Of a stretch of 64,000 bases of DNA, positions 2,710-34,171 are shown one piece after another. Position 1 is the stretch's first letter. The number at the start of each line of letters is the position of its first letter. The DNA lies in IMG/VR virus record IMGVR_UViG_3300037510_000569, positions 62,732 to 126,731 of that record; one strand, written 5' to 3'. This stretch comes from a virus (Duplodnaviria; Heunggongvirae; Uroviricota; Caudoviricetes). Made by a program: the position numbers and the translations under genes. Under the pieces are notes generated by a model. It worked only from the letters and a program-made list of their open reading frames with translations, did not search any database and was not told the origin of the DNA.

Positions 2710-3237
2710 ATGAGGGTCGCCGTCGGCTACCTCTGGCATTTCGGCTCGACGACGCTCCACAAGTTCTGGGTTGCCTTCCACCTGATGCGCTGGGTCTTCT
2801 CCGACTACCTGCGCGCGCTCGAGCACGACGACATCCCGCCGCTCCTGCTCTGGCTCGAGCTCGTCAAGCGCGCCCTGCTGCACGATCTCTCCAAGTACCG
2901 GCGTGACGAGGCCCAAGGCTTCGCCCGGACGATTCATCGGCTGGGCAGCACGCCGTATGGCACCGACGCCTACAAAGAGCTTTTGCGGGAGATCAAACCG
3001 TCGATCCAGCGCCACTACAGCCGCAACCGCCACCATCCCGAGTGGCACGCGGATGGCTATGAGGGCATGAGCCGCATCGACCGGATCGAGATGGTCGCCG
3101 ACTGGGGCGCTGCGGTGCGCCGGCACAAGGACGGCGACCTCGAGCGCTCGATCACCACCAACGCCGAGCGTTTCGGCTACGGCGACAACGAGACGATTTT
3201 CCTGCGTTCCACCGCGCGTCGAATGAGACTGCTTTAG
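2710..3237 (+). CDS. hypothetical protein with H..HD..H motifs, possible HD-type metal-dependent hydrolase
   Basis: LLHDLSKY and RHHPEWH motifs; 175 aa. Confidence 0.45.
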   Translation: MRVAVGYLWHFGSTTLHKFWVAFHLMRWVFSDYLRALEHDDIPPLLLWLELVKRALLHDLSKYRRDEAQGFARTIHRLGSTPYGTDAYKELLREIKPSIQRHYSRNRHHPEWHADGYEGMSRIDRIEMVADWGAAVRRHKDGDLERSITTNAERFGYGDNETIFLRSTARRMRLL

Positions 3238-3304
3238 TCCTCCTGGGCATCGCTCGACGACTTAGCTTTGGTAGCTTCCAAGGTCACCGACCAAGGAGGA
3301 CGAG

Positions 3305-3613
3305 ATGCAATTCACGATCAAGGACGGCAACGGCGAGACCGAGCCATCGACCTACGCTGTTTGCCCTGCGATGGGGAGTGCCTACTACCTCTACGGAGGC
3401 GATGACGCCCTTCAGCAAGTGTCGCTCGGAGAGGGCGACATCCCGGACTTCGAGCCAGTCCCGGAGGTCGAGGACCCCGAGGACAAGTTCTTCGGCGGCG
3501 GTGAAGTCGACTGGGACCGCGGCTTCGAGACCGACAGCCAGCGGATCGAAGTCTCGCGGATCAGCGAGGCGCTCAAGGGCGCGACGATCGGCCCGGTCAA
3601 GGCCGAGGTCTAA
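3305..3613 (+). CDS. hypothetical acidic protein (102 aa)
   Basis: RBS and start-associated motif ccgaccaaggagg sit 6 nt upstream of the ATG. Confidence 0.55.
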   Translation: MQFTIKDGNGETEPSTYAVCPAMGSAYYLYGGDDALQQVSLGEGDIPDFEPVPEVEDPEDKFFGGGEVDWDRGFETDSQRIEVSRISEALKGATIGPVKAEV

Positions 3614-3751
3614 CCGCCGCACCGAGGCGTATCTTGGGTCACGGTGCAAGGCCGTGGCCCAAATCGCTTCCTCCGATGGTCCTCGCCGAGGTGCGTCCGC
3701 ACCGAGGCTGGCGCCGTAAGCGAGCGCCGTCAGTAGCGTCGCCCCGTCGTA

Positions 3752-3775
3752 GGCCGCCCTCGCGCAAGGGCGGCC
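3752..3775 (+). terminator. GC-rich hairpin, putative intrinsic terminator
   Basis: ggccgccct cgcgca agggcggcc (9-bp stem) followed by a T-containing tract, just upstream of the first tRNA cluster. Confidence 0.4.
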
Positions 3776-3935
3776 TTCGTCGTTCAGGGCGTGTATCCTT
3801 GCGGAGCAGATGAACCATGATCGCTCTCATACAGCCGCCCCGCGCCGCTTCGACGGTCGAAGTTCGTCTGCCTCATCTCGATATTTGCGCCTGCGACTCG
3901 CCTAGTCGGATTCCGACTCTGGCTCAGTCGCACTA

Positions 3936-4020
3936 GGAAGGTGCTGCTGGGCTGGTCCGGCAACTGGTCTCGAAAGCCAGGGGGCGGTAATACGTCGGGG
4001 TTCGACTCCTCCACCTTCCG
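3936..4020 (+). tRNA. tRNA-Ser(CGA), class II with long variable arm
   Basis: Hand-folded: acceptor ggaaggt/accttcc, anticodon loop ctCGAaa, T-loop ttcgact. Confidence 0.7.
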
Positions 4021-4026
4021 CTACAT

Positions 4027-4101
4027 GCGCGGGTAGGCAAACCTGGCAAAGCCACTCGGTTTAGGCCCGAGGATCTGAGGGTTCGAATCCCTCCCCGCGT
4101 A
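4027..4101 (+). tRNA. tRNA with anticodon TAG (Leu) but a class-I short-variable-arm architecture
   Basis: Acceptor gcgcggg/cccgcgt, anticodon stem ctcgg/ccgag, loop ttTAGgc, T-arm gaggg-ttcgaat-ccctc, discriminator A. Confidence 0.55.
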
Positions 4102-4107
4102 CTTCAC

Positions 4108-4181
4108 GCCCCGCTGGGCAAATCGGCAAAGCCGCCCGCTTCAAACTCGGGAGCTTCCAGGTTCGACTCCTGGGCGGGGTA
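4108..4181 (+). tRNA. tRNA with anticodon CAA (Leu) but a class-I architecture
   Basis: Acceptor gccccgc/gcggggt, loop ttCAAac, T-arm ccagg-ttcgact-cctgg; its D-arm (ggcaaa..ggcaaagcc) resembles the preceding tRNA. Confidence 0.55.
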
Positions 4182-4185
4182 TTGG

Positions 4186-4274
4186 GCCGGATGCTGACGG
4201 CGACTCGGGATCGTCGGGCGGGCTGTAACCCCGTTGCCTCGCAAGGGCTAGAGGTTCGAATCCTTCATCCGGCA
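4186..4274 (+). tRNA. tRNA-Tyr(GTA), class II
   Basis: Acceptor gccggat/atccggc, anticodon stem gcggg/cccgt, loop ctGTAac, long variable arm. Confidence 0.7.
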
Positions 4275-4317
4275 TGACCCGACAAGTCCGGACTTGTCCA
4301 GACCTGCCGGGTCAGAT

Positions 4318-4400
4318 GGAAGGGCGGCAATTGGTGACGCAGCGCCCCTGCTAAGGGCGTGGGTGTAACAGCCCTGCGGGTTCGACCCCCGCCCCTTCCG
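4318..4400 (+). tRNA. tRNA-Ser(GCT), class II
   Basis: Acceptor ggaaggg/cccttcc, anticodon stem cgccc/gggcg, loop ctGCTaa, T-arm gcggg-ttcgacc-cccgc. Confidence 0.7.
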
Positions 4401-4402
4401 CT

Positions 4403-5944
4403 TCAGCCGTCGTACCTCCAAGCGGCCGGGTTGATCGAGCGAGGGCGTCGGCCGCCTTCTTTGACGGAGACCATGCCGTTAGCTTGGCGGCTGTAAACGA
4501 CTCCGCGCGTTCCATCTACTCCTCGGACGATCGGGTCCCCTTTCTCCCAGTTTTCGGGGAGCCTCTTGTCGAGCTTCACCCTCTTTACCTTCTTCGTCGG
4601 CTTGCGCTTCATTACAGCCGATGGCGTGGTCGTGGCAGGACTCTCCGGGAGCGCCAGAGCGGGCAGGTGCATCGCCAGGGAAGCCGTGCGATCGGCGTAG
4701 CGGAAGACGGCTGCGGTGTTCTCCGGCACCGTCTGCGGGACATTCGCTTCCGGGGTGACGACGATCGCCGCCGCGGGGCCGACGACGAAGACGCCAGACT
4801 CTTTCATTCGGGCGACGACACGCCCGCCAGCCCGGTATTCGGCCATGTCCGCCACATCCACGTTGCTGTTGAAGCCAGTCGCCCAGACCACGAGGTCGTA
4901 GCGAGCACCGTCGACGTAGGCACCCTCGAAGGCTACGCCCGAGCTGTCAGCGCGCCTCCGGATGGGCTTCACCCTGGCGTCGGTACCGTCGATGTCCGTG
5001 GGCAGCAGTCGAGCGATGCCCTGGTAGCGGGAGCGGTTGTTTTCCTTCCAGCCCGCACGGAACGCGCAGCTTTCCGGCACCCCATACCAGTCGATCGTCT
5101 CGATGAAGTCGAGCGACGCGACGGACATCTGGCTCGATGGACCTTGGCCAGTCATTGCCTCGATCACGGTCTTGCCCGCGTCACCAGCACCGATCACGGC
5201 GACTCGTTTCAAGCCCTGAAAGGGGAAAGGCTGATCGAGGCTGGCCAGGAACTGTGGGTAGCTCATCATCCGCTCGCCGTCCATCTCGGCGGGTCCCTTG
5301 GGTTCCCCGAGACCAGTCGCGTAGATCACGCGGGCGGTCTTGATCGTCTTGCCATCGGCGAGCGTTACGCTGGTCGAGTTTGCCTCGACTACCTCTCTCC
5401 CCACGATCACTCGTGCGTTCATTGCGAGCGCCGTGCGGATGGAGAAGGAGAGCGCGGAGTTTGGCTGGTACTCGTCGCCGCTCAAGTCGGCAGGCTGAAC
5501 CGGCGCACCAGGCAAGACGTTCAGCGCTTCGCCACGACCGGGGATGCCGAGATTGCCTGGCCGGTTGCGGCTGTTCAGGTAGAAAGTGGAATCACGGCTG
5601 ACCGCGAAGATGCCGCCAGCGCGCGGTTGCGCCTCGATCACGAGCGGTTTCGGATGGCCCTCGGCCACGCGCACCGCGCAGTAGATCGCGGCATGAAGAC
5701 CAGCGCCGACAACGATCTCCGGTGCCTCCTGCGGGACGGCGGCGCTGGCCCACATCATGTCGAGCTCTCGGTCGAACATGGCGCGCGCCTGGGGGACAAG
5801 CGCTACGCCAGTGAGTTTGGCGGCGAGGGTCGAGTCGAACTCTGGCGCGCGCGCCATCATTGCCTTTACGCCGTCGTTCATGCTCTTGTCCTGAGCGATT
5901 TTGGACAGGACAGAACCAACGCGGCTGGGGGGTCGGTCGGGCAT
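4403..5944 (-). CDS. FAD/NADPH-dependent class-B flavoprotein monooxygenase (N-hydroxylating or FMO-like) with a basic C-terminal extension
   Basis: Two dinucleotide-binding motifs (VVGAGLHAAIY and VAVIGAGDAGKTV) plus the ATG motif DLVVWATGF; own RBS gaggagaaagagaATG; start-associated motif about 36 nt upstream. Confidence 0.75.
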   Translation of the reverse strand: MPDRPPSRVGSVLSKIAQDKSMNDGVKAMMARAPEFDSTLAAKLTGVALVPQARAMFDRELDMMWASAAVPQEAPEIVVGAGLHAAIYCAVRVAEGHPKPLVIEAQPRAGGIFAVSRDSTFYLNSRNRPGNLGIPGRGEALNVLPGAPVQPADLSGDEYQPNSALSFSIRTALAMNARVIVGREVVEANSTSVTLADGKTIKTARVIYATGLGEPKGPAEMDGERMMSYPQFLASLDQPFPFQGLKRVAVIGAGDAGKTVIEAMTGQGPSSQMSVASLDFIETIDWYGVPESCAFRAGWKENNRSRYQGIARLLPTDIDGTDARVKPIRRRADSSGVAFEGAYVDGARYDLVVWATGFNSNVDVADMAEYRAGGRVVARMKESGVFVVGPAAAIVVTPEANVPQTVPENTAAVFRYADRTASLAMHLPALALPESPATTTPSAVMKRKPTKKVKRVKLDKRLPENWEKGDPIVRGVDGTRGVVYSRQANGMVSVKEGGRRPRSINPAAWRYDG

Positions 5945-5979
5945 CTCTTTCTCCTCTCGGCCCGAGTATCTCGGGCGTT

Positions 5980-6008
5980 CCTTGGTCGGGTGCCAACAAA
6001 GTTATCAG
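5980..6008 (-). promoter_or_regulatory. conserved start-associated motif copy (minus strand) upstream of the monooxygenase gene
   Basis: Reverse complement reads ctgataactttgttggcacccgaccaagga, followed by hairpin cccgagatactcggg and then the RBS. Confidence 0.5.
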
Positions 6009-6238
6009 GATTCAGACCACGCAGCTACGGCTTATTTGCTTCCCTTCCTGCAGCGCTGATAGCCTTTCTCGTATGGCCCTGTCGCCGACACGAATTACCT
6101 CGAATCCCACGGCGACTACCCGAGGGCGAAAGCCCCAGGGCCAACCCCGCCAGCTTTAGCCGGGCGCTCCTGCGGCGACCCGGCATCAGCTTCCCGCTCC
6201 GGGTTGGTCACATCCGACGCAGCAGTCATAGCTGCCAC

Positions 6239-6592
6239 ATGCCTTACGCCGACCCAGATGCACAGAGGGCTTGCAACCGTCGCTGGTATCAGCGCAATCA
6301 AAGGAAGGAGATCGAAAGAGCCAGAGCACGCAAGATCGAATTGAGGGCGTTCATCCAGTCCCAGAAGGAAGCGCCCTGTGCCGACTGCGGCGGCGAGTTT
6401 CCACCAGTCGCTATGGACTTCGATCATCGCGAGGTAGCCGAGAAGGACATGGCGGTGGCAACGCTCGCGGGCTATGGCAGCAAGACGAGAATCGAAAGAG
6501 AGATAGCGAAGTGCGACTTGGTCTGTGCCAACTGCCATCGGGTCAGGACAGCAGAGCGCAGATCGGAGTCAGAACTTTCCGCGGTGGTGTAA
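6239..6592 (+). CDS. HNH endonuclease (117 aa)
   Basis: CADCGG...DFDHRE...CANCH motif; the true start is an internal ATG of ORF 4484..6592, whose upstream part is antisense to the monooxygenase. Confidence 0.7.
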   Translation: MPYADPDAQRACNRRWYQRNQRKEIERARARKIELRAFIQSQKEAPCADCGGEFPPVAMDFDHREVAEKDMAVATLAGYGSKTRIEREIAKCDLVCANCHRVRTAERRSESELSAVV

Positions 6593-6648
6593 TGGCAGCA
6601 CGCGGCGCTCTGGACGCCGAAACGAGGGTTCGACCCCTTCCCGCGGAT
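6578..6648 (+). tRNA. tRNA-Gln(CTG)
   Basis: U1-A72 acceptor tccgcgg/ccgcgga, D-loop gtgtaatggcag, anticodon stem cggcg/cgccg, loop ctCTGga. Confidence 0.6.
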
Positions 6649-6656
6649 CTTGGAAT

Positions 6657-6729
6657 GGCGTCGTAGCTCAGTTGGCAGAGCAGGCCCCTCTTAAGGGCAA
6701 GGTCGCAGGTTCGATGCCTGCCGGCGCCA
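6657..6729 (+). tRNA. tRNA-Lys(CTT)
   Basis: Acceptor ggcgtcg/cggcgcc, D-arm tagctcagttggcagagca, loop ctCTTaa, T-arm gcagg-ttcgatg-cctgc. Confidence 0.65.
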
Positions 6730-6749
6730 CTGGAAATATTTCCAATATT

Positions 6750-6823
6750 GCGGCGGTAGCTCAGATGGCAAGAGCATCTCGCTTCCAACGAGAAGGTCGC
6801 CGGTTCGAAGCCGGCTCGCCGCT
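6750..6823 (+). tRNA. tRNA-Gly(TCC)
   Basis: Acceptor gcggcgg/tcgccgc, anticodon stem tctcg/cgaga, loop ctTCCaa, T-arm gccgg-ttcgaag-ccggc. Confidence 0.7.
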
Positions 6824-6824
6824 T

Positions 6825-7352
6825 ATGAGGACATTCGACAAGGGCAATATCGCTGAGGCCGCTTGGGTCTCCTTCTTTACTCGCTGCGGCGATGTCGTGC
6901 TTCTGCCTTTCGGCGGCGGCGCACGCTATGACCTCGCAGTTGATCGAGGGAACGGACTGGAGCGGGTGCAGGTCAAGACCGCTCGCCGTCGGGGAGAAGT
7001 GCTGCGAATCCCAACCTGTTCCGTTATGCCCGACCGAAGCCAGAGCAAGCGCTATACGGCCGAGGAAATTGATCTCCTCGCGGCATATTGGCCGGAGGAG
7101 GATCGCTACTTCCTGATCGCCGTAGACGATCTGCCAGCGACGGAGATCAACTTGAGGCTCAATCCGGCGAAAAACGGACAACAAGCTGGTATCCGAGATG
7201 CCCTGGCCTACGAGGTCGTACCGATCCCTAAGATTTCCCTTTCTGCCCGTCGAGCTCACGTTGGCTTCGAGCACTCCCCTCGTAAGGGAGAGGACGCAGG
7301 TTCGATTCCTGTGACGGGCTCTGCGGCTTCGGCCGCCACCCTGGACGGGTAG
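6825..7352 (+). CDS. PD-(D/E)xK-type nuclease-like protein; its 3' end runs through tRNA-Thr
   Basis: ATG 2 nt after tRNA-Gly; motifs YDLAVD ... LERVQVKT (D..ExK); the C-terminal about 35 aa are junk-like and overlap the tRNA at 7245..7320, so the true end is unclear. Confidence 0.45.
   Translation: MRTFDKGNIAEAAWVSFFTRCGDVVLLPFGGGARYDLAVDRGNGLERVQVKTARRRGEVLRIPTCSVMPDRSQSKRYTAEEIDLLAAYWPEEDRYFLIAVDDLPATEINLRLNPAKNGQQAGIRDALAYEVVPIPKISLSARRAHVGFEHSPRKGEDAGSIPVTGSAASAATLDG
7245..7320 (+). tRNA. tRNA-Thr(CGT)
   Basis: Acceptor gcccgtc/gacgggc, D-stem gctc/gagc, anticodon stem ctccc/gggag, loop ctCGTaa, T-arm gcagg-ttcgatt-cctgt. Confidence 0.7.
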
Positions 7353-7417
7353 CTGAGTCCGGTCCAAGCGCCGCTCTGATAAGGCGGTCTACGAAGGTTC
7401 AAATCCTTCCCCGTCCA
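7343..7417 (+). tRNA. tRNA-Ile(GAT)
   Basis: Acceptor ggacggg/cccgtcc, anticodon stem ccgct/ggcgg, loop ctGATaa, T-arm gaagg-ttcaaat-ccttc. Confidence 0.7.
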
Positions 7418-7423
7418 CTTCGG

Positions 7424-7494
7424 TCCCTCGTGGCGTAGCGGCAACGCATCCGACTGTTAATCGGAAGTCCTTGGTTCAAATCCAAGCGAGGGAG
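7424..7494 (+). tRNA. tRNA-Asn(GTT)
   Basis: Acceptor tccctcg/cgaggga, D-stem gcgt/acgc, anticodon stem tccga/tcgga, loop ctGTTaa, T-arm cttgg-ttcaaat-ccaag. Confidence 0.7.
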
Positions 7495-7579
7495 CTTGAG
7501 CGAGATGCGGGAGTCGCTAAGCTGGCGGTGCGATGGCTGCTCGCCGAAAATCGCTGCGACATCCCTAGCCCGACAACTT

Positions 7580-7653
7580 GGGGGCGTAGCTCAACGGCTT
7601 AGAGCGCTGGACTTTTAATCCGGGAGATGGCGGTTCGAATCCGCTCGCCCCTA
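7580..7653 (+). tRNA. tRNA-Lys(TTT)
   Basis: Acceptor gggggcg/cgcccct, anticodon stem ctgga/tccgg, loop ctTTTaa, T-arm ggcgg-ttcgaat-ccgct. Confidence 0.7.
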
Positions 7654-7655
7654 CT

Positions 7656-7728
7656 GCGGCCGTCGTCTAATTGGTCAAGACTTCGGGATGTGGCCCCGAC
7701 AATGCGGATTCGAGTTCCGCCGGTCGCC
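7656..7728 (+). tRNA. tRNA-His(GTG)
   Basis: Acceptor gcggccg/cggtcgc with discriminator C, anticodon stem tcggg/cccga, loop atGTGgc, T-arm gcgga-ttcgagt-tccgc. Confidence 0.7.
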
Positions 7729-7851
7729 TTGACTCAGATAGGGTGCGCGATGCTGATCGGCACTGAGGTCCGGGCCGACCCCCTGCCGTCGCCCGGACCT
7801 CCCTTTACCCTCATCAGGTAGCCTCCCAGCACCCGACCAAGGAGTTGCCCG

Positions 7852-8736
7852 ATGAGCCCGTTGATGATGTTGAGCCGCGAACTGAAGCGCGTTCCCCTCG
7901 ACTTCGATGCCCCGGTTGGAGATACGTGGGCACCGCTTTTGGAGCACCCCGACTGGCACAACTTCCCGGCCTGCGAGACCTGCGGACCACCGACTCTTAT
8001 AGCCCACGGCGGCGAACGCCATCCCTTCGGCACCGACCTCGAGGGGCGTCCGAAGGGTGATGGCTTGACTCCCGAAGCGCGCCAGCTCGACCGCAGTTGG
8101 TATGCGCGCTATATCGGCGACAACGCCCAGCGCCAAGCGCTCTCGTGGGACGACAAGCTCGGCCAGCACGAAGTGGATGCGCTCATCAAGGCGGGCCGGT
8201 TCAACCCCGTGATCGACTGCCCGAAAGGATGCAAGTCGCCCGAGGATCGCGGCGTCGAGCGCGGCCAGCCGTGGAAAACCGACTGCCCCGACTGCCAAGG
8301 CCGGGGCTGGACTCGCCGCCAGCTCGAGCCCGGCGAGATCACTGCCGCCGATGTCAACGCACAACAGCGCGCTGGCGGCTTCGGCCACGACGGGATCAAC
8401 CACAGTATCGCCATGCGCGCACGCTGCGAGCTGCTCGGCTTCGGGGTGAACTGCGAGACCTGCGACGGGCACGGCGACATCGCCACCGACGAGCTGCGCG
8501 AGAAACGCGAAGCATGGGAGCCTCCCAAGCCGCCGGAGGGGCCGGGCTTCCAACTGTGGCAGTCGATCAGTGAGGGTGGTCCCGTCAGTCCGGTCTTCGC
8601 CTCTGCCGAGGAACTCGCAGGGTGGCTCGCGGAGAACTACGAGGTCGTTGGCAACCGCTACGACTCCGACAGTTGGATGAAGGTGCTCGATGGCGAGGCG
8701 AGCGCATTTGAGGTCGGAAGCGGCCAATTGGTGTGA
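7852..8736 (+). CDS. Cys-rich protein with two DnaJ-type CxxCxGxG zinc-finger repeats
   Basis: CPDCQGRG and CETCDGHG plus further CxxC pairs; the partial start-associated motif cccgaccaaggag precedes the ATG. Confidence 0.6.
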   Translation: MSPLMMLSRELKRVPLDFDAPVGDTWAPLLEHPDWHNFPACETCGPPTLIAHGGERHPFGTDLEGRPKGDGLTPEARQLDRSWYARYIGDNAQRQALSWDDKLGQHEVDALIKAGRFNPVIDCPKGCKSPEDRGVERGQPWKTDCPDCQGRGWTRRQLEPGEITAADVNAQQRAGGFGHDGINHSIAMRARCELLGFGVNCETCDGHGDIATDELREKREAWEPPKPPEGPGFQLWQSISEGGPVSPVFASAEELAGWLAENYEVVGNRYDSDSWMKVLDGEASAFEVGSGQLV

Positions 8737-9107
8737 CCGAGTACGTCTGCTCTTTCTGTCTCAAGCCGGACACGATCCGCGAATCGGTGACGCTTCACGG
8801 CTGCTCGGAGAAGGTCAACATCGTCGCCTCAGACTCCGAGAAGTTTCCGGGCCCGCGAGCTATTCAAGCCACGCGACCCGAACGGGCGACCTCTTGGGAC
8901 TCGGTCGACGGCGAAGGCTTCTATTGCACGAACTGCGAGGCGTCTTTCTCCAAGCTCGAGGACATGGTGATCCTCCGGCCCCTCTTCGAGTGCCGCTCCT
9001 GTGGTTGGAGCGGCAGCAACCTCGACGAGCATCTGGACAACTGCCCCGAGACGCCGGAGCGCGTCGATCCAGCCGAAGTCAACCCCGGTCAGGAGACCCT
9101 CACATGA
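8733..9107 (+). CDS. Cys-rich zinc-ribbon protein
   Basis: GTG overlaps the upstream stop; CSFC..CTNC..CRSC..C motifs. Confidence 0.5.
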   Translation: MTEYVCSFCLKPDTIRESVTLHGCSEKVNIVASDSEKFPGPRAIQATRPERATSWDSVDGEGFYCTNCEASFSKLEDMVILRPLFECRSCGWSGSNLDEHLDNCPETPERVDPAEVNPGQETLT

Positions 9108-12530: not shown

Positions 12531-12643
12531 TCTTGATCTCGTGATCCGCCGCCTCCCAGACGCGCTTCGATTTCGACCGCCCGCCACGGCGGCGGACGAC
12601 CACACGGGCAACTAGAGCCCCTCGTCCTCCGCCGCCTCACCCT

Positions 12644-12716
12644 GGGGCGGTAGCTCAGCTGGTAGAGCGCTGGCTTGAAACACCAGAGGCCGCCGGTTCG
12701 AGTCCGGCCCGTCCCA
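12644..12716 (+). tRNA. tRNA-Phe(GAA)
   Basis: Acceptor ggggcgg/ccgtccc, D-arm tagctcagctggtagagc, loop ttGAAac, T-arm gccgg-ttcgagt-ccggc. Confidence 0.7.
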
Positions 12717-12720
12717 TCCT

Positions 12721-12792
12721 CGGGCTGAAGTGTTGGTGGCCGCACACGCGGTTTGGGTCCGCGAGGCGAAGGTTCGACTCCTTCCAGCCCGA
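12721..12792 (+). tRNA. tRNA-Pro(TGG)
   Basis: Acceptor cgggctg/cagcccg, anticodon stem cgcgg/ccgcg, loop ttTGGgt, T-arm gaagg-ttcgact-ccttc. Confidence 0.65.
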
Positions 12793-12817
12793 TCCATTGC
12801 TAGGCTTCGACGACCGA

Positions 12818-12889
12818 TGCAGGGTAGAGGAGCGGCTTCCTTGTCGGGCTCATAATCCGAAGACGCGGGTTCGAATCCCGCCCCTGCAA
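12818..12889 (+). tRNA. tRNA-Met(CAT), elongator-type U1-A72
   Basis: Acceptor tgcaggg/ccctgca, anticodon stem tcggg/tccga, loop ctCATaa, T-arm gcggg-ttcgaat-cccgc. Confidence 0.65.
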
Positions 12890-12904
12890 CTCGCACCGCC
12901 CCTT

Positions 12905-12973
12905 GGGGGAGCGACAGGCGGGCGGCGCTGGCCTCCAAAACCGGCGCTGAGGGTTCAATTCCCTCCTCCCCTG
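12905..12973 (+). tRNA. tRNA-Trp(CCA)-like with a shortened D-arm
   Basis: Acceptor gggggag/ctcccct, anticodon stem ctggc/accgg, loop ctCCAaa, T-arm gaggg-ttcaatt-ccctc; only 69 nt. Confidence 0.5.
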
Positions 12974-18408: not shown

Positions 18409-21400
18409 GTGCTGCGCGAACCCGTTTTCGAGCCGATCGAGCAAGCGGCTGACGAGGACGATCCCGAGGGCCTGCTTGGCACCGCGGCCGGGCGTCTCCT
18501 CGAGGGTGCCGCCCACAGCGGTGCGATGGTCGCGCTCTACCCCGACGCCGCCACGGCGGCCGAGCTTGCCATCTCTGACGGCGAGGACGCCGACGAGCTC
18601 CACCTGACCCTCGCCTTCCTGGGCGAAGCGGAGAAGCTGAACCTCACGCGGGCGCTCCAGGTCGTCGCCGAGTGGGCCGCAGCCTGCCCGCCCAGCCTCT
18701 CGGGTGAGATCAGCGGCGTCGGCCAGTTCGCCACGGGTCCGGTCACCTACCTCTCAGTCGATCTGCCGGATCTCCCGCCTCTGCGCGAGCGTCTGGTCGA
18801 TGGGTTCGATGCAGCAGGGGTGCCGCCGAAGCGCGACCACGGCTTCACGCCCCACATCACGCTCGACTACGCGCGGCGCCGGCCCAAGATGGACAGGCCG
18901 ATCCCGATCCGCTTCGACCGCGCGACCCTGGCCTGGGCCGGTTCCCAGTTCAGCTTCCCGCTCGGCGTCCGCTCGGCGGTGCCCCTGCAGGAGGCCCGGA
19001 TGCTCCTGGAGGGCAAATGGGACGCGAGCCTCCACCCGCGCTGGCCGAAAGGCACCCCGCGCGCGGGCGAGTTCATGCGCGTGGGCCAGCGCTTCATCGG
19101 CTCCGACGGCAAGGAGTGGCAGATCGCCCACATCGCCGGGGGCAAGGTGATCGCCAACCGCGCCGAGGGCAAATACGCCGAGACGGAGACGGGGGTCTTC
19201 CATCCCGAGAAGGTCAAGGGCGGCAAGTCACCCCTCGAAGGCGGCGAGGAGACCCACGTCATCGCCGATGTGAAGAAAGAGGCCGCACCGCGCAAGGTCC
19301 AGGGAGGCAAGGGCAAGGGCGCGACGGTGCCGATCGTCGATCCCTACGTGGACGGGTCAAGCCACGACGCCTCTCTGCCGGTTCCGGCTGGCTCGAAAGT
19401 CAGCGCCGAGGAGTGGAAACGCTTCGGCAAGATCGACCAGGAGCACTACGCCGAGTTGATGCAGCGCTTCGGCAAATACAGCCCTGGCAAGGCCAAGTCG
19501 ATGATCGACGAGGCCTACAAGGACTACGAGGCCGAGATTCAGGCGATCGTGAAGAACGCCTACAGCGCCCAGTACGGCTCCTCCTCGGGCTTCACGCTGA
19601 GCCTCACCGGCGTCTTCAAGGCGATCACCGGCCAAGACAAGAAGGAGCTGGCGAAGCTCGACGCCCAGCGCCAGCGCGCCCTCGAGCTTCAGGGCCGCCA
19701 CAAAGACGTGATCGCCTGGGACCTCTACAACCGCACGCGCTCCCCTGACGTGGCGGTCTTCCACAAGTCCAACGACCCGCCGAGCTACTGGCAGGAGTTC
19801 ATCCAGGGCAACCGGCCGGTGATGTCGGGGCTGTCGCAGTCGTTCAACTTCGGCGCGAACTTCGGCTTCGGCTCGAACACGCTGGCGACCCCGCTGGCGA
19901 TCCGCCACGTCCTGATGTCCTCCTACTCCGCCCAGCCGATCCCCGGTCAGACCCACTTCGCCGGCGAGCTCGAGATCAGCGTCGCCGAGCAGCTCAAGAT
20001 CGACAACCGCTCGATCACCTTTTCGCTGCACGACATCACCGCCAACCAGAAAAAGTGGCTGATGGGAGTCACCAAGGCACCCACCGGCGGGGACACCGTA
20101 GAGCGCTTCAAGGAAGCGCTGCAGTCCGGCGAGATGCTGCCGACCCCGCCCGCCCCGCCGGACATTCAGATGCAGGGGGAGGGGCAGAAGCTCTGGATCG
20201 ATCCGCCGCCGGAGGCCGCCGATTACATCGAGCGCTTCGCCGACAAACTGCCGGCGCAGCAGGGGTCTCCGCTGGACCCCGGCAAACTCGACAAGAAAGG
20301 TCCGTGGGCCTTCAAGGATGCGGGCGGCTTGCCGAAAGCGACCGTCGCCAAGGAGTCCGAATACAAGCCCGGCGACTACATGCTGGGGCTGAAGGGCACG
20401 CTCTACATCGTCGTCGAGGACCCCGGCGACCCGACCGGCTTCGGCTTGCGCTACGTCAAGATCGAGAACGGCAAGTTCAGCGGGGAGTCCTACAACTTCG
20501 AGGGCGGCGGCGGCAATCAGTACTTCAAGCTCAGCGCCCACTACGAGCTCCCCGACCCCCACAAAGAAGCGAAAGCATCCGACCTCTTCGACCCGCACGC
20601 CTGGGTCAACGGCGAGAAAGAGAAGTTCGTCGGCAAGCTGGAGCCGGGCGACAAGTTCAAGGTCAACGGCAGCCCCTACGAGGTCAAAGCCCAGCTGAGC
20701 GGCGCCCAGACCCAGATCACCGACCTCACCAGCGGCAAGGTCGGCACGATCAACACCGACTACAAGACCCATGTCCTGGTGCCGAAGGAGGGCTACGTGC
20801 CCGAGGCACCCGAAGGGGAGAAGCTGGCGCCGGCCAAAGGGATGACGCTCGCCTACGACGGCACAAAGCACGTCGTGACGACGATCCTGAAGGACGGCAC
20901 CGTCAAGGCGAAACCGACCGGCGGCGGCAAAACGGTGGCGATCGCAGCAGACGATCCTGAGCTGGACAACCTCTATGACCCAACCGCCCACAAGATCGGG
21001 GCCAAAATCAAGGCCGGCGACCTCGCCGTCGGCCAGCTCTTCCACGGCGGCCGCGGTTCCACGCAGCGCCCCTACGTCATCACGGGCGCGGAGGGCAACA
21101 AGGTCACCTGGCGATCGCTGGACACTGGCGAGGAGGGCATCTTCACCAAGGCCAAGCAGGTCCGACTGCTCGATGACGCGGAAGCGCCAGAGCCGGAGGC
21201 AGAGCAGCCGAGCGTCGAGCCGATCTCGCACGACCAACTCAAGCCGGGGGACTCAACGACGATCTCCAACTTGAAGGCGGGCGACTTCTTCTCGGTCGAT
21301 GGCGAAGTCTTTAACGTGGTCTGGGAGCCGCCGACGCTCGAGGACAACGCCGGCGTGGCCAAGGTGATGCCATCAGGCGAGATCGGCGCGGGGAGCAGCG

Positions 21401-22713
21401 AGGGCGCTTACCCGGACAAGCTCGTCACCTACACGGGCACTGCGCCGCCGCTACCCGCCACCGATATGCCCGAGGGCGGATTCCCCGACCTAGTGGCCGA
21501 GGGCGGATTTGACCCCTACAAGTCGAAGTACGGCAGCGGCGGCAAATACACCCACGACAAGCTCGGCGAAATGGTCCCCGGCACGATCTTCCGCGACAAG
21601 GGCGGCAAGCTCTGGAAGATCAAGGAGGCCGACCACGCCGTCATCGTCACCGATGGCAATGTCCTCTACACCGCCGACGCTTCGCTGCGCGGGCGGGTCG
21701 TCCAAGCGGAGTTCGTCGACACGACCGGCCCGGTCAAGGGCCCGCACGCCGATCCTCAAGAGGTCGCCGCAGCGGAGGGCTTGGCCCCGAACAGCAAGGG
21801 CCTGACGATGGCTGATCTGCCAGCCGGTGCGACCGTCTTGGTCAACGGCGAGGTCCAAGTGGTCAAGGCGCCCGCCGAGCCCGGCGACGAGGTGAGCGCG
21901 CTGGCTGCTTCCACCGAACTCGCAGACGGAGGCGAGAACCTTCTGGGTCCGGCGATCATCCCCGATCAGATCAAGCTGCCACCGAAGGTGAAATCGTTGG
22001 GAGCCCTCAAGGAAGGCGACACCTTCGCAGGCGCGGACGGTAAGCAGCACATCGTCGTAGCCAAGTCCGTCGATGGCGACGTAGTCGTTAAGACGCCAGG
22101 AGGTCAGCTGTGGAAGCTCCCGCCCTCGACCCCGCGCGACGCGGTCGACGCCGGTGTCGATGGTGGCCTCGCTGCGCCGCCGAAACCGGCACCCCCACCA
22201 GGTGATTTGAAAGTCGCCGACCTCGAGGACGGCGCGGTATTCATGGGTGCAGGGGGCGAGCTCAATACGGTCGTCGCCAAGACGGTTGACGGCGGGATCG
22301 TCGTGATGAAGGGCGACAAGCCCGGCGGCGAGATGACGACCCTCCCCGGCACCGCGGTCATCAAGGCAAGCCAAGTCGATGTGGAAGCCGAGGGCGGCGT
22401 AGCGGGTATCCCGTCCGAGGGCGAGTGGAGCGAGGCAGTGCAGCAGGCTCTCGGCGAAGCAGGGGTCACGATGGAGGAGGTCCCGGTGGCGAGTGGGATC
22501 GAGGGCTACAAGTCCAAATGGGGCTCTGGCGGCAAGTACCAGCACTACATGCTGAGCGAGCTCGAGCCCGGCGCCGTCTTCGTCGACAAGCAGGGCAACA
22601 GCTACACCGTCGTCGGCGGCGGGCCGAAGGGGTCGATCCTGGTGCTCGGCTCAGCCAGCGGCCTGCTCAGCCTCGCGCCGGCGGGCCTGCGCGCGAAACG
22701 CCTCGAAAGCTGA
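18409..22713 (+). CDS. giant 1434-aa multidomain protein: N-terminal 2H phosphoesterase (LigT/CPDase-like), putative R-S-ExE ADP-ribosyltransferase region, then many repeats of a roughly 40-aa small beta domain
   Basis: Two HxTx motifs (HLTLAF and HITLDY) about 85 aa apart; YNRTRS...SGLSQSF...AGELEIS spaced like ART R / STS / ExE; repeats of L(K/E)xGDxF..G..Y.VV...DG.V.V and GYKSK(Y/W)GSGGKY. Confidence 0.7.
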   Translation: MLREPVFEPIEQAADEDDPEGLLGTAAGRLLEGAAHSGAMVALYPDAATAAELAISDGEDADELHLTLAFLGEAEKLNLTRALQVVAEWAAACPPSLSGEISGVGQFATGPVTYLSVDLPDLPPLRERLVDGFDAAGVPPKRDHGFTPHITLDYARRRPKMDRPIPIRFDRATLAWAGSQFSFPLGVRSAVPLQEARMLLEGKWDASLHPRWPKGTPRAGEFMRVGQRFIGSDGKEWQIAHIAGGKVIANRAEGKYAETETGVFHPEKVKGGKSPLEGGEETHVIADVKKEAAPRKVQGGKGKGATVPIVDPYVDGSSHDASLPVPAGSKVSAEEWKRFGKIDQEHYAELMQRFGKYSPGKAKSMIDEAYKDYEAEIQAIVKNAYSAQYGSSSGFTLSLTGVFKAITGQDKKELAKLDAQRQRALELQGRHKDVIAWDLYNRTRSPDVAVFHKSNDPPSYWQEFIQGNRPVMSGLSQSFNFGANFGFGSNTLATPLAIRHVLMSSYSAQPIPGQTHFAGELEISVAEQLKIDNRSITFSLHDITANQKKWLMGVTKAPTGGDTVERFKEALQSGEMLPTPPAPPDIQMQGEGQKLWIDPPPEAADYIERFADKLPAQQGSPLDPGKLDKKGPWAFKDAGGLPKATVAKESEYKPGDYMLGLKGTLYIVVEDPGDPTGFGLRYVKIENGKFSGESYNFEGGGGNQYFKLSAHYELPDPHKEAKASDLFDPHAWVNGEKEKFVGKLEPGDKFKVNGSPYEVKAQLSGAQTQITDLTSGKVGTINTDYKTHVLVPKEGYVPEAPEGEKLAPAKGMTLAYDGTKHVVTTILKDGTVKAKPTGGGKTVAIAADDPELDNLYDPTAHKIGAKIKAGDLAVGQLFHGGRGSTQRPYVITGAEGNKVTWRSLDTGEEGIFTKAKQVRLLDDAEAPEPEAEQPSVEPISHDQLKPGDSTTISNLKAGDFFSVDGEVFNVVWEPPTLEDNAGVAKVMPSGEIGAGSSEGAYPDKLVTYTGTAPPLPATDMPEGGFPDLVAEGGFDPYKSKYGSGGKYTHDKLGEMVPGTIFRDKGGKLWKIKEADHAVIVTDGNVLYTADASLRGRVVQAEFVDTTGPVKGPHADPQEVAAAEGLAPNSKGLTMADLPAGATVLVNGEVQVVKAPAEPGDEVSALAASTELADGGENLLGPAIIPDQIKLPPKVKSLGALKEGDTFAGADGKQHIVVAKSVDGDVVVKTPGGQLWKLPPSTPRDAVDAGVDGGLAAPPKPAPPPGDLKVADLEDGAVFMGAGGELNTVVAKTVDGGIVVMKGDKPGGEMTTLPGTAVIKASQVDVEAEGGVAGIPSEGEWSEAVQQALGEAGVTMEEVPVASGIEGYKSKWGSGGKYQHYMLSELEPGAVFVDKQGNSYTVVGGGPKGSILVLGSASGLLSLAPAGLRAKRLES

Positions 22714-24794: not shown

Positions 24795-24933
24795 CTCCGC
24801 CGGGCCGAAGTGAATCGGTTATCTCATGCCAAGAGAGAGGTCGCGGGTTCGAGTCCCGCTCCGGGCCGCAAGGACCGGGTAGCTCAGCTGGTAGAGCGCT
24901 AAAACTCCGATTTGCACCCCATGCTCGGCGCTT
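24795..24933 (+). ncRNA. Y-RNA-like unit 3 with T-arm-like and D-arm-like elements
   Basis: GGGCCGAAGugaaucGGUUAUCUC (near-identical to the human Y RNA GGUCCGAAG..GUUAUCUC stem, from memory) ... cgcgggttcgagtcccgc ... gggtagctcagctggtagagcgc ... caccCCATGCTCGGC. Confidence 0.6.
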
Positions 24934-25074: not shown

Positions 25075-25222
25075 TCCGCCGGGCCGAAGCAGGTTGGTTA
25101 TCGGCTCATAACCGGGTGGCCGCGGGTTCGAGTCCCGTCGCACCTCCGCCTTCGGGCCACGGGTGCGTAGCTCAGTTGGTAGAGCACCTAAACGCCAATC
25201 GGCAATCCCACGCTCGGCACTT
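25075..25222 (+). ncRNA. Y-RNA-like unit 5 with T-arm-like and D-arm-like elements
   Basis: GGGCCGAAGcaggttGGTTATC ... cgcgggttcgagtcccg ... gtgcgtagctcagttggtagagcac ... caatcCCACGCTCGGC. Confidence 0.55.
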
Positions 25223-25259
25223 CCTCGACGCGACACCGGACCCTTTGCTAGTGTCGCGC

Positions 25260-25330
25260 GTGGGCGGGCCGAAGCCCTTCGGTTATCTCTTACGGAAAAG
25301 ACCCGATCGGCAACCCCACGCTCGCTCGTC
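25260..25330 (+). ncRNA. Y-RNA-like unit 6 (minimal)
   Basis: GGGCCGAAGcccttcGGTTATCTC ... caaccCCACGCTCGCT; ends about 30 nt before the Ro60 start. Confidence 0.5.
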
Positions 25331-25360
25331 TCTTGTACTCCACTGACCGGGAGGACCCCA

Positions 25361-27856: not shown

Positions 27857-28205
27857 CGGGTGCAACGGCAAGCACACCATCGATCCGTCTGACCGCAAGC
27901 GAGCGATGGAGTCGTCCAAAGGCGCGACGGTCAAATGCAAGACCTGCGGCAAGCGCCTGCGACTGAAGCCCTCCTCGGGCGAATCGGTCAAGGACGAGGC
28001 CAAGGTTCAGGAGGCAAAGCTCTCCAGCCAAGCCCGCAACGATCTGCCGGCGTCAGCCTTCGTCTTCCCCAAGGAACGGCGCTACCCGATCCACGACGAA
28101 TCCCACGCCAAGAACGCGCTGGCGCGATCGTCGGGTAAGCCGGAGGAGGCGACGGTCCGCGCTGCGGTTTACCGCCGTTATCCCGGCCTCAAGAAGAAGG
28201 AATGA
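27849..28205 (+). CDS. hypothetical protein with CxxC and YPIHDESHAKNALAR motif
   Basis: GTG start whose ORF overlaps the upstream stop by 8 nt; 118 aa. Confidence 0.45.
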   Translation: MADGCNGKHTIDPSDRKRAMESSKGATVKCKTCGKRLRLKPSSGESVKDEAKVQEAKLSSQARNDLPASAFVFPKERRYPIHDESHAKNALARSSGKPEEATVRAAVYRRYPGLKKKE

Positions 28206-28498
28206 CGGTGATGATCGGACTCCCGACGCCTGCGGCCCAGATTCGGGAGGAGCTCGCTCGATTGCGGCGCAAGGGCCTGAGTTTCGAGATCGCCTGGCGG
28301 CGAGCACTTGAGCGCGTGAAGTGGCCCGAAGAGAAAGGGCCGCGCGACGAATGGAAGGCGATCCTCGCCGACGGCAGGCCGATGTGGGAGGACGCCTACC
28401 TCCGCAACGGCAACAAGCCGAAGGGCATGGAGGCGATCACCGGCTTCTTCCTCTCAGACGCCTCGGGCGAGCGCCAACCGCTCGAGGTCCTCGCCTAG
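28202..28498 (+). CDS. hypothetical protein
   Basis: ATGA overlap; 98 aa. Confidence 0.45.
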   Translation: MTVMIGLPTPAAQIREELARLRRKGLSFEIAWRRALERVKWPEEKGPRDEWKAILADGRPMWEDAYLRNGNKPKGMEAITGFFLSDASGERQPLEVLA

Positions 28499-34099: not shown

Positions 34100-34137
34100 G
34101 GTCAGGCAGCCTACTGGCTGCGATCCAGCCAAATAAG

Positions 34138-34167
34138 TGCTAACTTTCTTGGCACCGACCAAGGGGA
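34138..34167 (+). promoter_or_regulatory. full start-associated motif copy before the ligase gene
   Basis: gctaactttcttggcaccgaccaagggga, 4 nt before the ATG. Confidence 0.55.
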
Positions 34168-34171
34168 AGCA

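Follow-up and report, generated by a model that had tools for sequence, protein, structure and literature searches.

The tailed-phage genome fragment analysed here (hereafter the window, 64,000 nucleotides) carries two tandem type I leucine tRNA genes, in which the variable region consists of a loop of only 5 nt. We consider it probable (roughly 80%) that both are functional leucine isoacceptors of a lineage widespread among phages and mobile tRNA arrays, that they would be charged by the LeuRS of the host and that they would read CUA and UUG codons. The short-armed tRNA-Leu is a genuine but ordinary feature, since the same form is annotated in several phages and has relatives in hundreds of them as well as in tRNA arrays, and since a short-loop tRNA of Streptomyces accepts leucine.

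Structure of the two leucine tRNA genes

Both genes lie on the plus strand. ARAGORN calls a tRNA-Leu(UAG) at 4027-4102 and a tRNA-Leu(CAA) at 4108-4181, and the Rfam tRNA model (RF00005, gathering score 29) aligns in full to 4027-4101 with 56.8 bits and to 4108-4181 with 48.3 bits. An earlier note on this DNA had described adjacent tRNAs with leucine anticodons and a short variable arm; both programs place them at the same positions with the same anticodons. It had put the variable loop at 4-5 nt, which was right as to its shortness, the length being exactly 5 nt in each gene (GAUCU in the UAG gene, AGCUU in the CAA gene), with no stem. The genes are 74-75 nt long and do not encode CCA. They share a 7-bp acceptor stem with G1:U72 and discriminator A73, a 3-bp D stem (GGC/GCC around AAA..GG.AAA), a 5-bp anticodon stem (with a C31.U39 mismatch in the CAA gene) and a T arm with a 5-bp stem and a TTCGA T-loop. 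The UAG and CAA anticodons stand in a standard 7-nt loop according to ARAGORN, with which the Rfam alignment agrees, and are followed by G37 and A37, respectively. The leucine-type core is complete in both genes (U8:A14, A15:U48, the 3-bp D stem, G18G19, a canonical T-loop and A73), and in minimum-free-energy folds the acceptor, anticodon and T arms reappear, the z-scores being -1.9 (UAG) and -2.2 (CAA).

The possibility that extra residues build a long arm finds no support: neither ARAGORN, Rfam nor ViennaRNA gives any alternative fold with a variable stem-loop of more than 10 nt. With 5 nt between the anticodon and T stems and a total of 74-75 nt, a canonical bacterial class II tRNA-Leu is ruled out, and the 64-kb window contains no class II tRNA-Leu elsewhere.

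The D-arms, which had struck the earlier note as unusual, turn out to have the ordinary tRNA-Leu architecture (3-bp stem, A13 A14 A15, G18 G19, A21 A22). In phage T4, the class II tRNA-Leu shares this architecture (GGTCAAATTGGTAAAGGC) and has A73, and the class II tRNA-Leu(UAA) of Solirubrobacterales/Conexibacteraceae has a D-arm identical to the one described here (GGCAAACTGGCAAAGCC), again with A73. The T4 and actinobacterial tRNAs differ from those of the window in their variable stem-loop of 15-16 nt and their length of 84-87 nt. If the hairpin is taken out of the actinobacterial arm TG[CTCGAGAGAG]CTT, TGCTT remains, a common type I loop. The lineage has probably lost the long variable hairpin while retaining the rest of the tRNA-Leu body.

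The term 'mitochondria-like', which had also been proposed, fits the short loop but not the elbow between the D and T loops, which is fully canonical: G18G19, T54, T55, C56 and A58 are as expected in both genes, and the general tRNA model scores high. In animal mitochondrial tRNAs, the D and T loops are reduced or atypical and the elbows weak, and the canonical loops and elbow rule out an animal-mitochondrial-type tRNA-Leu here. The animal mitochondrial tRNALeu(UUR/CUN) resemble the window genes in the shortness of the variable loop, and the LeuRS that charges them is of bacterial type. The human mitochondrial tRNALeu(UUR) is not charged by the LeuRS of Streptomyces coelicolor (ScoLeuRS; PMC6614811).

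The tRNA clusters and their phage context

The leucine genes belong to a cluster headed by a class II tRNA-Ser(CGA) with a long variable arm (3936..4019, plus strand), called by ARAGORN at 3940-4019 (80 nt); the Rfam tRNA-Sec model aligns to 3936-4019 with 39.2 bits and an acceptor stem of GGAAGGU/ACCUUCC. A class II tRNA-Ser(GCU) follows downstream (4318..4401, plus strand; 84 nt in ARAGORN, 32.5 bits with the tRNA-Sec model). Between them, the class II tRNA-Tyr(GUA)-like gene at 4186..4274 on the plus strand is marginal. It has an atypical D region, with 3 nt separating the acceptor and D stems, is missed by ARAGORN at default settings and found at 90% thresholds, matches the tRNA-Sec model only (30.9 bits) and folds with a z-score of -1.0. 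The description of all three as normal class II tRNAs therefore holds for both serine genes but not for the tyrosine-like one.

Two further blocks lie on the plus strand. The second, at 6578..7728, comprises Gln(CUG), Lys(CUU), Gly(UCC), Thr(CGU), Ile(GAU), Asn(GUU), Lys(UUU) and His(GUG), called by ARAGORN and scoring 50-68 bits with Rfam. The third, at 12643..12973, was likewise found with ARAGORN and Rfam and comprises Phe(GAA), Pro(UGG) and Met(CAU), with 68.7, 48.9 and 59.3 bits, and a marginal Trp(CCA). This last gene (12905-12973) reaches 26.5 bits, short of the gathering score of 29, and is called by ARAGORN at 95% thresholds only; its reduced D region of 13 nt cannot be aligned, so that the earlier description of a truncated D-arm was correct. 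The total of 17 tRNAs given previously consists of 15 confident genes and these two marginal ones (Tyr-like and Trp-like). ARAGORN gives a 16th tRNA, Ala(ggc), on the minus strand at 28417-28505; Rfam finds no tRNA there at E<=1, and the call is probably false. Between the tRNA blocks lies a small open reading frame for an HNH endonuclease (6239..6592, plus strand), whose start codon is uncertain; PHROG HNH families match residues 573-698 of the reading frame 4484-6592, with E-values down to 6.6e-27.

A megablast search of positions 3000-9000 against isolate phages gave no match. The window holds sheath and tape-measure genes of a tailed phage; the tail sheath is at most ~24% identical to that of any isolate phage, and one IMG/VR contig encodes a sheath with 74% identity, its retrieved flank being devoid of tRNAs. 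One of two tRNA-adjacent proteins led to a 31%-identical locus without tRNAs and the other had no match, and the only homologous block found is a Ser-Leu-Ser block on the viral contig L278. The window also carries genes of RNA-repair type, namely Ro60 with YrlA-like RNAs, RlaP and a LigT-like domain. Relatives of its Ro60 occur in phages of Gordonia, Mycobacterium and Streptomyces, and its Ku protein has no phage homologue by tblastn. The Ro60 relatives, the G+C content of 65% and the absence of an encoded CCA give only a hint that the host could be an actinobacterium.

Distribution of short-armed leucine tRNAs

The earlier note had implied that this form is rare, which does not hold: it is annotated as plain tRNA-Leu in several isolate phages, and the family consensus matches 725 isolate phage records. 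Annotated short tRNA-Leu genes occur in the Mycobacterium phages PegLeg, StAugustine and JHC117, the Streptomyces phage Samy, the Cellulophaga phage phi17:2, the Acinetobacter phage Ab_121 and TrudiGerster, a T5-like coliphage. Those of PegLeg, StAugustine, JHC117, Samy, phi17:2 and TrudiGerster resemble the window genes in their length of 74-75 nt, the lack of CCA, the 5-nt loop, the 3-bp D stem with AAA..GG..AAA, A73 and, usually, G1:U72. In PegLeg, Samy and StAugustine the D-arm is the same nearly base for base, and their tRNA-Leu are 72-80% identical to the window genes (80% for the CAA gene against the PegLeg group). The isolate-phage tRNAs carry the anticodons CAG, UAG and UAA, and none of these phages is closely related to the one studied here. 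Closer at hand, the type I tRNA-Leu of L278 is ~90% identical to tRNA-Leu(UAG) and has the same stems, but its anticodon is CAG, not UAG. The tRNA-Ser(CGA) of the window is in turn homologous to the Ser(tga) of that contig, and the homologous Ser-Leu block points to anticodon drift between UAG and CAG in a type I body.

A first scan with the D-arm alone was dominated by chance matches (14 tRNAs with the motif, two of them from isolate loci, against 120 loci) and was therefore replaced by a pattern with the T-loop added. This pattern fixed the D-arm and GTTCRA and allowed either class of variable region. It recovered 97 IMG/VR contigs with 92 tRNAs (73 unique), in all of which the variable region is short. 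All 92 have leucine anticodons (caa 41, tag 32, gag 9, cag 8, taa 1, aag 1), and A73 is present in 71 of the 73 unique sequences. The window genes fit two family alignments without difficulty. The tandem Leu-Leu arrangement, searched for as a pattern in IMG/VR, gave no match.

On the same viral contigs, the variable arm is long in 53 of 54 tRNA-Ser and 22 of 26 tRNA-Tyr, and short in 48 of 69 further tRNA-Leu. A loss of the arm confined to leucine tRNAs fits the established view that the long variable arm serves SerRS and bacterial TyrRS but not LeuRS.

In bacterial genomes, 32 short leucine tRNAs were found among the first 120 matches, mostly in dense tRNA arrays, and the motif is present in arrays of Mycobacterium, Streptomyces, Micromonospora and Isosphaeraceae. 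Seven of the same first 120 matches are stand-alone tRNA-Leu(CAA) genes, the three with a displayed source coming from Jiangellales-type Actinobacteria. A blastn search with both genes against plasmid and E. coli genome collections (E<=1e-3) gave no match, the 155-nt query having little power. A short-variable-loop tRNALeu(TAG) was noted in passing in Mycobacterium tRNA clusters, where the core-genome isoacceptor keeps the normal long loop (Behra et al., 2019; PMC6582537). It shares with the window the anticodon TAG, the short loop and a dense cluster with an HNH endonuclease gene (PMC6582537); however, the mycobacterial clusters are bacterial arrays on chromosomes or large plasmids, whereas ours lies in a tailed-phage genome. 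Our literature search, which did not extend to older subscription literature (on phage T5 tRNAs, for example), found no paper on short-armed tRNA-Leu in phages.

Structural conservation and leucine identity

We aligned 64 family representatives of less than 88% identity. Their cloverleaf is 99.5% paired, with 386 double-sided changes, and the covariation score is 0.851, compared with 0.195 in shuffles and 0.11-0.16 in slid controls, which shows that the structure is under strong selection throughout the family. Invariance within the D-arm and part of the T-loop is given by construction, because the search pattern fixes these positions; A14 and A15, which never vary, belong to the fixed D-arm, whereas U8, U48 and A73, invariant in 64 of 64, all lie outside the pattern. 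The variable loop has 5 nt in 54 representatives, 6 nt in five and 7 nt in five, with a minimum of 5. The anticodon loop is constantly of 7 nt, with T33 in at least 90% of the representatives, and position 37 is a purine throughout, mostly G with UAG, mostly A with CAA and mixed with GAG and CAG.

The bacterial leucine identity set has been summarized as A73, U8:A14, A15:U48, G18G19 and the T-loop (PMC6614811). In the IMG/VR and bacterial scans, the body paired with the A73 discriminator carries leucine anticodons only, and the occurrence of one body under six leucine anticodons from both codon boxes is what a LeuRS identity blind to the anticodon predicts. The D-arm by itself is not specific for leucine, because the bacterial genome scan found the same arm in tRNA-Gln(UUG) of cyanobacterial arrays. 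These look-alikes have U1:A72, G73 and UUG, whereas the window genes have G1:U72, A73 and A35, which argues against a tRNA-Gln identity for the latter.

Charging and codon use

The closest biochemical precedent is the type I tRNALeu(CAA) of S. coelicolor, whose variable loop of 5 nt does not prevent its leucylation by ScoLeuRS in vitro (Fan et al., 2019; PMC6614811). The kcat/Km was 6.25, compared with 14.2 for type II; the minimum variable loop was 5 nt including nucleotide 48, U8:A14 was an identity element and A73 was reported to be unimportant for this enzyme (PMC6614811). Like the window genes, this tRNA has G18G19 and a canonical elbow and coexists with class II tRNAs (PMC6614811). Unlike them, it is chromosomal, and its loop, ACAGC, ends in C48 and not in the U48 that pairs with A15 here. 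It may thus not be close kin of the family described here. In the LeuRS of Aquifex, removal of the variable arm mainly reduces affinity, and deletion of U48 abolishes charging (PMC2377443). In vitro, the type I tRNALeu(CAA) of S. coelicolor was not a substrate for the LeuRS of E. coli (PMC6614811), so that chargeability depends on the host.

We picture the following course, by analogy with these systems. The two tRNAs would be transcribed, processed at their ends, provided with CCA by the CCA-adding enzyme and charged with leucine by the host LeuRS, since bacterial LeuRS reads A73 and the tertiary core (in the proposed scheme U8:A14, A15:U48 and G18G19:U55C56) and ignores both the anticodon and the variable-arm hairpin. 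tRNA-Leu(UAG) would then read CUA, and possibly other CUN codons by U34 wobble, and tRNA-Leu(CAA) would read UUG. Both would form part of a phage set of ~17 tRNAs that may supplement or back up the host pool during infection. The demand for them is small, because both codons are rare in this phage (65% G+C), making up 2.7% (CUA) and 6.9% (UUG) of leucine codons; no enrichment is seen in late genes, each codon amounting to 2.9% of leucine codons in structural genes.

Why the arm was lost, and alternative roles

Of the three readings offered earlier, non-canonical class I leucine isoacceptors, tRNAs for another amino acid and decoys, the first has held up and the other two are poorly supported. 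One may also ask whether functional leucine tRNAs gained something by losing the arm, as a leucine-decoding set resistant to host toxins or nucleases that recognize class II arms. We consider this unlikely. No bacterial toxin or nuclease is known to recognize tRNA-Leu by its arm. That the short form is found mainly on phages and on dense, probably mobile tRNA arrays, and that the window encodes the Ro60, RlaP and LigT-like functions mentioned above, are both in line with evasion. So is the toxin MenT3 of M. tuberculosis, for which the long variable loop of class II tRNASer is a recognition element; the same paper cites earlier in vitro work as reporting toxin activity on one M. tuberculosis tRNALeu (PMC11162799). 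However, MenT3 barely acts on tRNALeu in vivo (PMC11162799), the serine and tyrosine tRNAs of the same clusters retain their long arms and would thus remain vulnerable, and type I tRNA-Leu(CAA) also occurs as a stand-alone, apparently chromosomal gene in Actinobacteria (our scan; PMC6614811). Moreover, neutral loss of a dispensable hairpin in genomes constrained in size would give the same pattern. That arm loss is a counter-defence trait, the type I tRNA-Leu acting beside a Ro60/Y-like RNA, RlaP and LigT-like RNA-repair module, is a slightly less doubtful but still speculative idea. If it were true, many bacterial LeuRS would have to accept type I tRNAs, including that of E. coli for the tRNA-Leu of T5-like phages, contrary to the view of Streptomyces LeuRS as exceptional.

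It is very unlikely that the genes are pseudogenes in decay, or that they yield decoys of tRNA shape or regulatory RNAs acting outside translation. Since the Tyr-like and Trp-like genes are marginal, a degree of decay among the clustered tRNA genes is plausible; a stem of the CAA gene is mismatched at one pair, the two tRNAs serve rare codons, and one type I tRNALeu was not charged by the E. coli LeuRS in vitro. Against this, the full-model Rfam scores of both genes greatly exceed the threshold, and the pairing and compensatory changes, maintained across diverse phages and bacteria, are unlike those of decaying copies. The 7-nt anticodon loops, T33 and purine 37 count on the same side. A decoy for a nuclease or toxin would also be expected to retain the recognized feature rather than to lose it. 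Least probable is that the tRNAs carry another amino acid and the phage recodes CUA and UUG: LeuRS ignores the anticodon, so that a change in the body could in principle switch identity, the D-arm and 5-nt loop are common to the cyanobacterial tRNA-Gln(UUG), and GlnRS prefers weak first pairs such as G1:U72, but the leucine identity elements are all present and invariant in the family, the look-alikes differ precisely at the glutamine identity positions, the body bears six leucine anticodons and no other when A73 is present, the Streptomyces type I tRNALeu is leucylated in vitro, and the two codons are merely rare, with no unusual usage.

Implications

Functional leucine isoacceptors thus being the preferred reading, the annotation of the two genes is settled as tRNA-Leu(UAG) and tRNA-Leu(CAA), neither pseudogenes nor suspected recoding tRNAs. 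In the searchable literature, bacterial type I tRNALeu figures as a Streptomyces rarity (PMC6614811) or in a one-sentence mention (PMC6582537); our survey finds short-armed tRNA-Leu to be common on phages and mobile tRNA arrays of several bacterial phyla. This suggests that bacterial LeuRS enzymes broadly tolerate arm-less tRNA-Leu. The gap in the literature is of modest interest for the rules of tRNA identity, and it may bear on the reasons for which mobile elements carry tRNAs of their own.

Anatomy of the two tRNA-Leu genes

ARAGORN called 16 tRNA genes in the whole window, among them tRNA-Leu(UAG) (4027-4102 in ARAGORN, 4027-4101 in Rfam) and tRNA-Leu(CAA) (4108-4181), both on the plus strand. 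They match the Rfam general tRNA model end to end with 56.8 and 48.3 bits, respectively (gathering score 29). Rfam alignments and ARAGORN drawings give both genes a 7-bp acceptor stem with G1:U72 as its first pair and the discriminator A73. Both also have U8, a 3-bp D stem (GGC/GCC) around AAA-(2-3 nt)-GG-C-AAA, a 5-bp anticodon stem with a 7-nt loop (a single C31.U39 mismatch occurs in the CAA gene only) and a 5-bp T stem with TTCGA in the T-loop. The variable loop is 5 nt long and ends in U48 (GAUCU in the UAG gene, AGCUU in the CAA gene), and neither sequence encodes a CCA end. Thermodynamic folding gives the acceptor, anticodon and T arms back, with z-scores of -1.9 and -2.2. None of the programs used found residues in either gene able to build a long variable arm. 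The leucine anticodons and class I length proposed in an earlier note are thus upheld by ARAGORN, Rfam alignment and folding, and we found neither other anticodons or structures nor a hidden long arm. At the level of sequence, the two genes are type I tRNA-Leu genes, i.e. with a short variable loop, in every feature compared, and they lack the long variable arm that defines class II tRNA-Leu.

Among the 17 tRNAs called by hand in the earlier note, 15 are solid and two are marginal. The two Ser genes of the cluster are indeed class II (80 and 84 nt; ARAGORN, Rfam). The Tyr(GTA) gene (4186-4274), described as normal class II, is weaker than claimed, being missed by ARAGORN at default and found only at 90% thresholds, while only the tRNA-Sec model matches it (30.9 bits). 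The Trp(CCA) gene (12905-12973) scores 26.5 bits, under the threshold, and its D region is unalignable. An 89-nt tRNA-Ala(ggc) called by ARAGORN on the minus strand (28417-28505) spans the junction of two ORFs (28202-28498, plus strand; 28495-29673, minus strand), has no Rfam tRNA match even at E<=1 and is probably a false positive. The sole long spacer of the tRNA block holding the Leu genes, which separates the Tyr-like gene from tRNA-Ser(GCU), is filled by an imperfect long hairpin, TGACCCG-ACAAGTCCGGACTTGT-CCAGACCTGC-CGGGTCA (about 4275-4316), perhaps a signal for processing or termination.

Relatives in phages, viral contigs and bacteria

A sensitive blastn search with the cluster retrieved annotated tRNA-Leu genes of 74-75 nt from Mycobacterium phages (PegLeg group, StAugustine), Streptomyces phage Samy and Cellulophaga phage phi17:2, which align with the window genes and are near base-for-base identical in the D-arm. 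We then scanned for a pattern in which the D-arm and the T-arm GTTCRA were fixed with 26-46 nt between them, a spacing that allows either class of variable region to match. The complete IMG/VR scan yielded 97 contigs and 92 such tRNAs (73 unique), all with leucine anticodons (caa 41, tag 32, gag 9, cag 8, taa 1, aag 1) and all 92 with a short variable region. A73 is present in 71 of the 73 unique sequences and G1:U72 in 46. A search with a type I consensus hit 725 records of isolate phages (294 Mycobacterium, 190 Salmonella, 99 Escherichia and 46 Streptomyces phages, plus others), three of which were examined individually and the remainder assigned to type I because their ungapped matches extend from the anticodon stem across the 5-nt loop and into the T stem. 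In 201 of the 725, the match spans 80% or more of the query, and nearly all of the matches listed lie under annotated tRNA-Leu features. The three records are those of Mycobacterium phage JHC117 (tRNA-Leu(cag), 74 nt), Acinetobacter phage Ab_121 (tRNA-Leu(tag), 77 nt + CCA) and the T5-like coliphage TrudiGerster (tRNA-Leu(taa), 74 nt + CCA, with the 5-nt loop GTTTT, G1:U72 and A73). In two viral contig loci, L260 (523-992) and L311 (3450-3919), a class II tRNA-Ser(tga) is followed by three tandem type I tRNA-Leu (cag, gag, caa) and a class II tRNA-Leu(taa), so both tRNA-Leu classes can share one operon.

The scan of bacterial genomes gave at least 120 loci, with three tRNA groups among the matches listed. 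At least 32 are short Leu tRNAs, mostly in dense arrays (5-32 tRNAs per 8 kb) whose hosts, among the matches listed, are Isosphaeraceae, other Planctomycetota, Streptomyces, Mycobacterium, Micromonospora and Krasilnikovia. At least seven short Leu genes stand alone; all are tRNA-Leu(CAA), and the three with a displayed source are from Jiangellales-type Actinobacteria. At least five loci are class II tRNA-Leu of 84-87 nt (four UAA, one CAG) with an identical D-arm, the displayed sources being Solirubrobacterales, Conexibacteraceae and a Myxococcales bin. Finally, at least 17 are tRNA-Gln(UUG) in arrays of Nostoc and other cyanobacteria (loci L126, L128, L140, L142, L143, L169, L175, L182, L185, L203, L204 and others). 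These share the D-arm (GGCAAAcAGGCAAAGCC), the 5-nt variable loop and the T arm of the type I tRNA-Leu family but differ at U1:A72, G73 and the anticodon, which suggests, from sequence comparison, that one scaffold may have switched between Gln and Leu identity inside mobile tRNA arrays.

The class II tRNA-Leu of phage T4 has a matching D-arm architecture, GGTCAAATTGGTAAAGGC. Since T4 and bacterial class II tRNA-Leu share it, the D-arm of the window genes, previously called unusual, is a normal tRNA-Leu D-arm; nor are these genes mitochondria-like at the elbow. Type I lacks nothing but the variable-arm hairpin: the actinobacterial class II arm TG[CTCGAGAGAG]CTT without its hairpin becomes TGCTT, among the commonest type I loops.

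Selection and leucine identity

We counted base pairs on the type I cloverleaf in an alignment of 64 representatives (<88% identity), including both window genes. Standard pairs occupy 99.5% of cells, double-sided changes occur at 16 of 20 pairs (386 cells) and the covariation score reaches 0.851; shuffles score 0.195, and sliding the partners gives 0.11-0.16. The search pattern put no constraint on the acceptor, anticodon and T stems, but it fixed the D stem together with part of the T-loop, which are therefore uninformative on selection. This pattern of change marks a selected tRNA family rather than pseudogenes.

U8, U48 and A73, also free in the pattern, are invariant in 64 of 64 representatives, whose variable loop never falls below 5 nt, the length found in 54 of them. 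The conserved positions match the leucine identity set of bacterial LeuRS: A73, A14 (with U8), A15-U48, G18G19-U55C56 and U54-A58 (PMC6614811). With Aquifex LeuRS, taking away the variable arm entirely chiefly reduces affinity, whereas charging is abolished when U48 is deleted (PMC2377443). The natural type I tRNALeu(CAA) of Streptomyces coelicolor, with a 5-nt loop, is leucylated with a kcat/Km of 6.25 versus 14.2 s-1 uM-1 for the class II isoacceptor, and the minimum loop there is five nucleotides including nt 48 (PMC6614811). One type I body occurs under six Leu anticodons of both codon boxes, and a viral contig homologue (L278) about 90% identical to the window Leu(UAG) carries CAG, as anticodon-independent leucine identity predicts. 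On the same viral contigs the long arm is kept in 53 of 54 tRNA-Ser and 22 of 26 tRNA-Tyr, and 48 of 69 additional tRNA-Leu are short. The variable arm is used in recognition by SerRS and bacterial TyrRS, not by LeuRS.

Codon demand and genome context

In 54 ORFs picked by third-position G+C (15,569 codons), CUA and UUG account for 2.7% and 6.9% of Leu codons, and the two window tRNAs are rare-codon isoacceptors. An enrichment of these codons in late genes, raised in the earlier note, is absent, each making up 2.9% in the structural half; UUG reaches 9.4% in the non-structural half, about three times as much. In this genome of ~65% G+C, AAA represents 33% of lysine codons; tRNA-Lys(UUU) and tRNA-Lys(CUU) are both among the phage tRNAs.

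The G+C content varies between 56 and 67% along the window (64.4% overall). The window encodes a tail sheath, a tape-measure protein and a large protein with four peptidoglycan-binding repeats; the phage, assembled from a metagenome, is contractile-tailed, and we found no close relative among isolate phages. Its Ro60/TROVE gene (25163-26974) has its best relatives in Gordonia, Mycobacterium and Streptomyces phages (44-48% identity), and an actinobacterial host is plausible. Immediately upstream of the annotated Ro60 start, and slightly overlapping it, are two plus-strand matches to the YrlA family of bacterial Y RNAs (24836-24900 and 25091-25211; 36.9 and 40.8 bits, below the gathering score of 69, local E 1e-5 and 1e-6), each including a tRNA-like module. 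They probably form a Ro60-Y RNA module with the gene, whose real start probably lies downstream.

Genes of RNA- and DNA-repair type are clustered in the window: a 1434-aa protein with an N-terminal LigT/2'-5' RNA ligase-like domain (18409-22713), RlaP, a nucleotidyltransferase of an RNA repair pathway family (30736-31530), Ku (32774-33622, minus strand), for which tblastn against isolate phages detected no homologue, and an ATP-dependent DNA ligase (33902-35095). A small HNH endonuclease ORF (about 6239-6592, plus strand) sits between the first tRNA block and the second, and its end overlaps with tRNA-Gln at 6578. HNH or homing endonucleases have also been reported inside Mycobacterium tRNA clusters (PMC6582537), as well as beside the T4 tRNA region and the tRNA arrays of cyanobacteria (PMC8421152).

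Discussion

Alongside the gene anatomy, family membership, structural selection and conserved leucine identity elements demonstrated here, we envisage that the tRNA cluster would be transcribed and processed, CCA ends added enzymatically and both window tRNAs charged with leucine by the host LeuRS. They would then decode CUA (perhaps other CUN) and UUG within a supplement of roughly 17 tRNAs. The Streptomyces type I tRNA was not a substrate of E. coli LeuRS in vitro (PMC6614811), so acceptance is not guaranteed in every host. However, T5-like coliphages keep a type I tRNA-Leu, which suggests that acceptance may be wider than this experiment implies.

Charging with another amino acid, i.e. recoding, is unlikely, as the leucine identity elements are conserved and the Gln look-alikes differ precisely at Gln identity positions. 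One could also imagine that arm loss lets tRNA-Leu escape toxins that read the class II long arm, as MenT3 reads that of tRNASer (PMC11162799); this would fit the link of type I tRNA-Leu with mobile elements and the RNA-repair genes of the window. Nevertheless, Ser and Tyr tRNAs retain their arms and tRNALeu is hardly affected by MenT3 in vivo (PMC11162799), and we regard such counter-defence as quite improbable. Pseudogenes or decoys are contradicted by the Rfam scores and the covariation.

The type I form of the two genes has described precedents. Among the nearest is the S. coelicolor type I tRNALeu(CAA) which, compared by description only, has C48 in contrast to U48 in the window genes. 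A tRNALeu(TAG) with a short variable loop received a one-sentence remark in a Mycobacterium tRNA cluster that also contains an HNH gene (PMC6582537), and GenBank annotations of phages include many short tRNA-Leu, passed over without comment. In the literature searched, we did not find a paper on how common short tRNA-Leu is on phages and tRNA arrays. The short-armed form of the window genes is real and already known in phages and bacteria; it will not surprise a specialist of phage tRNAs, and the two genes deserve correct annotation. The breadth of short tRNA-Leu across phages and tRNA arrays may be under-appreciated.
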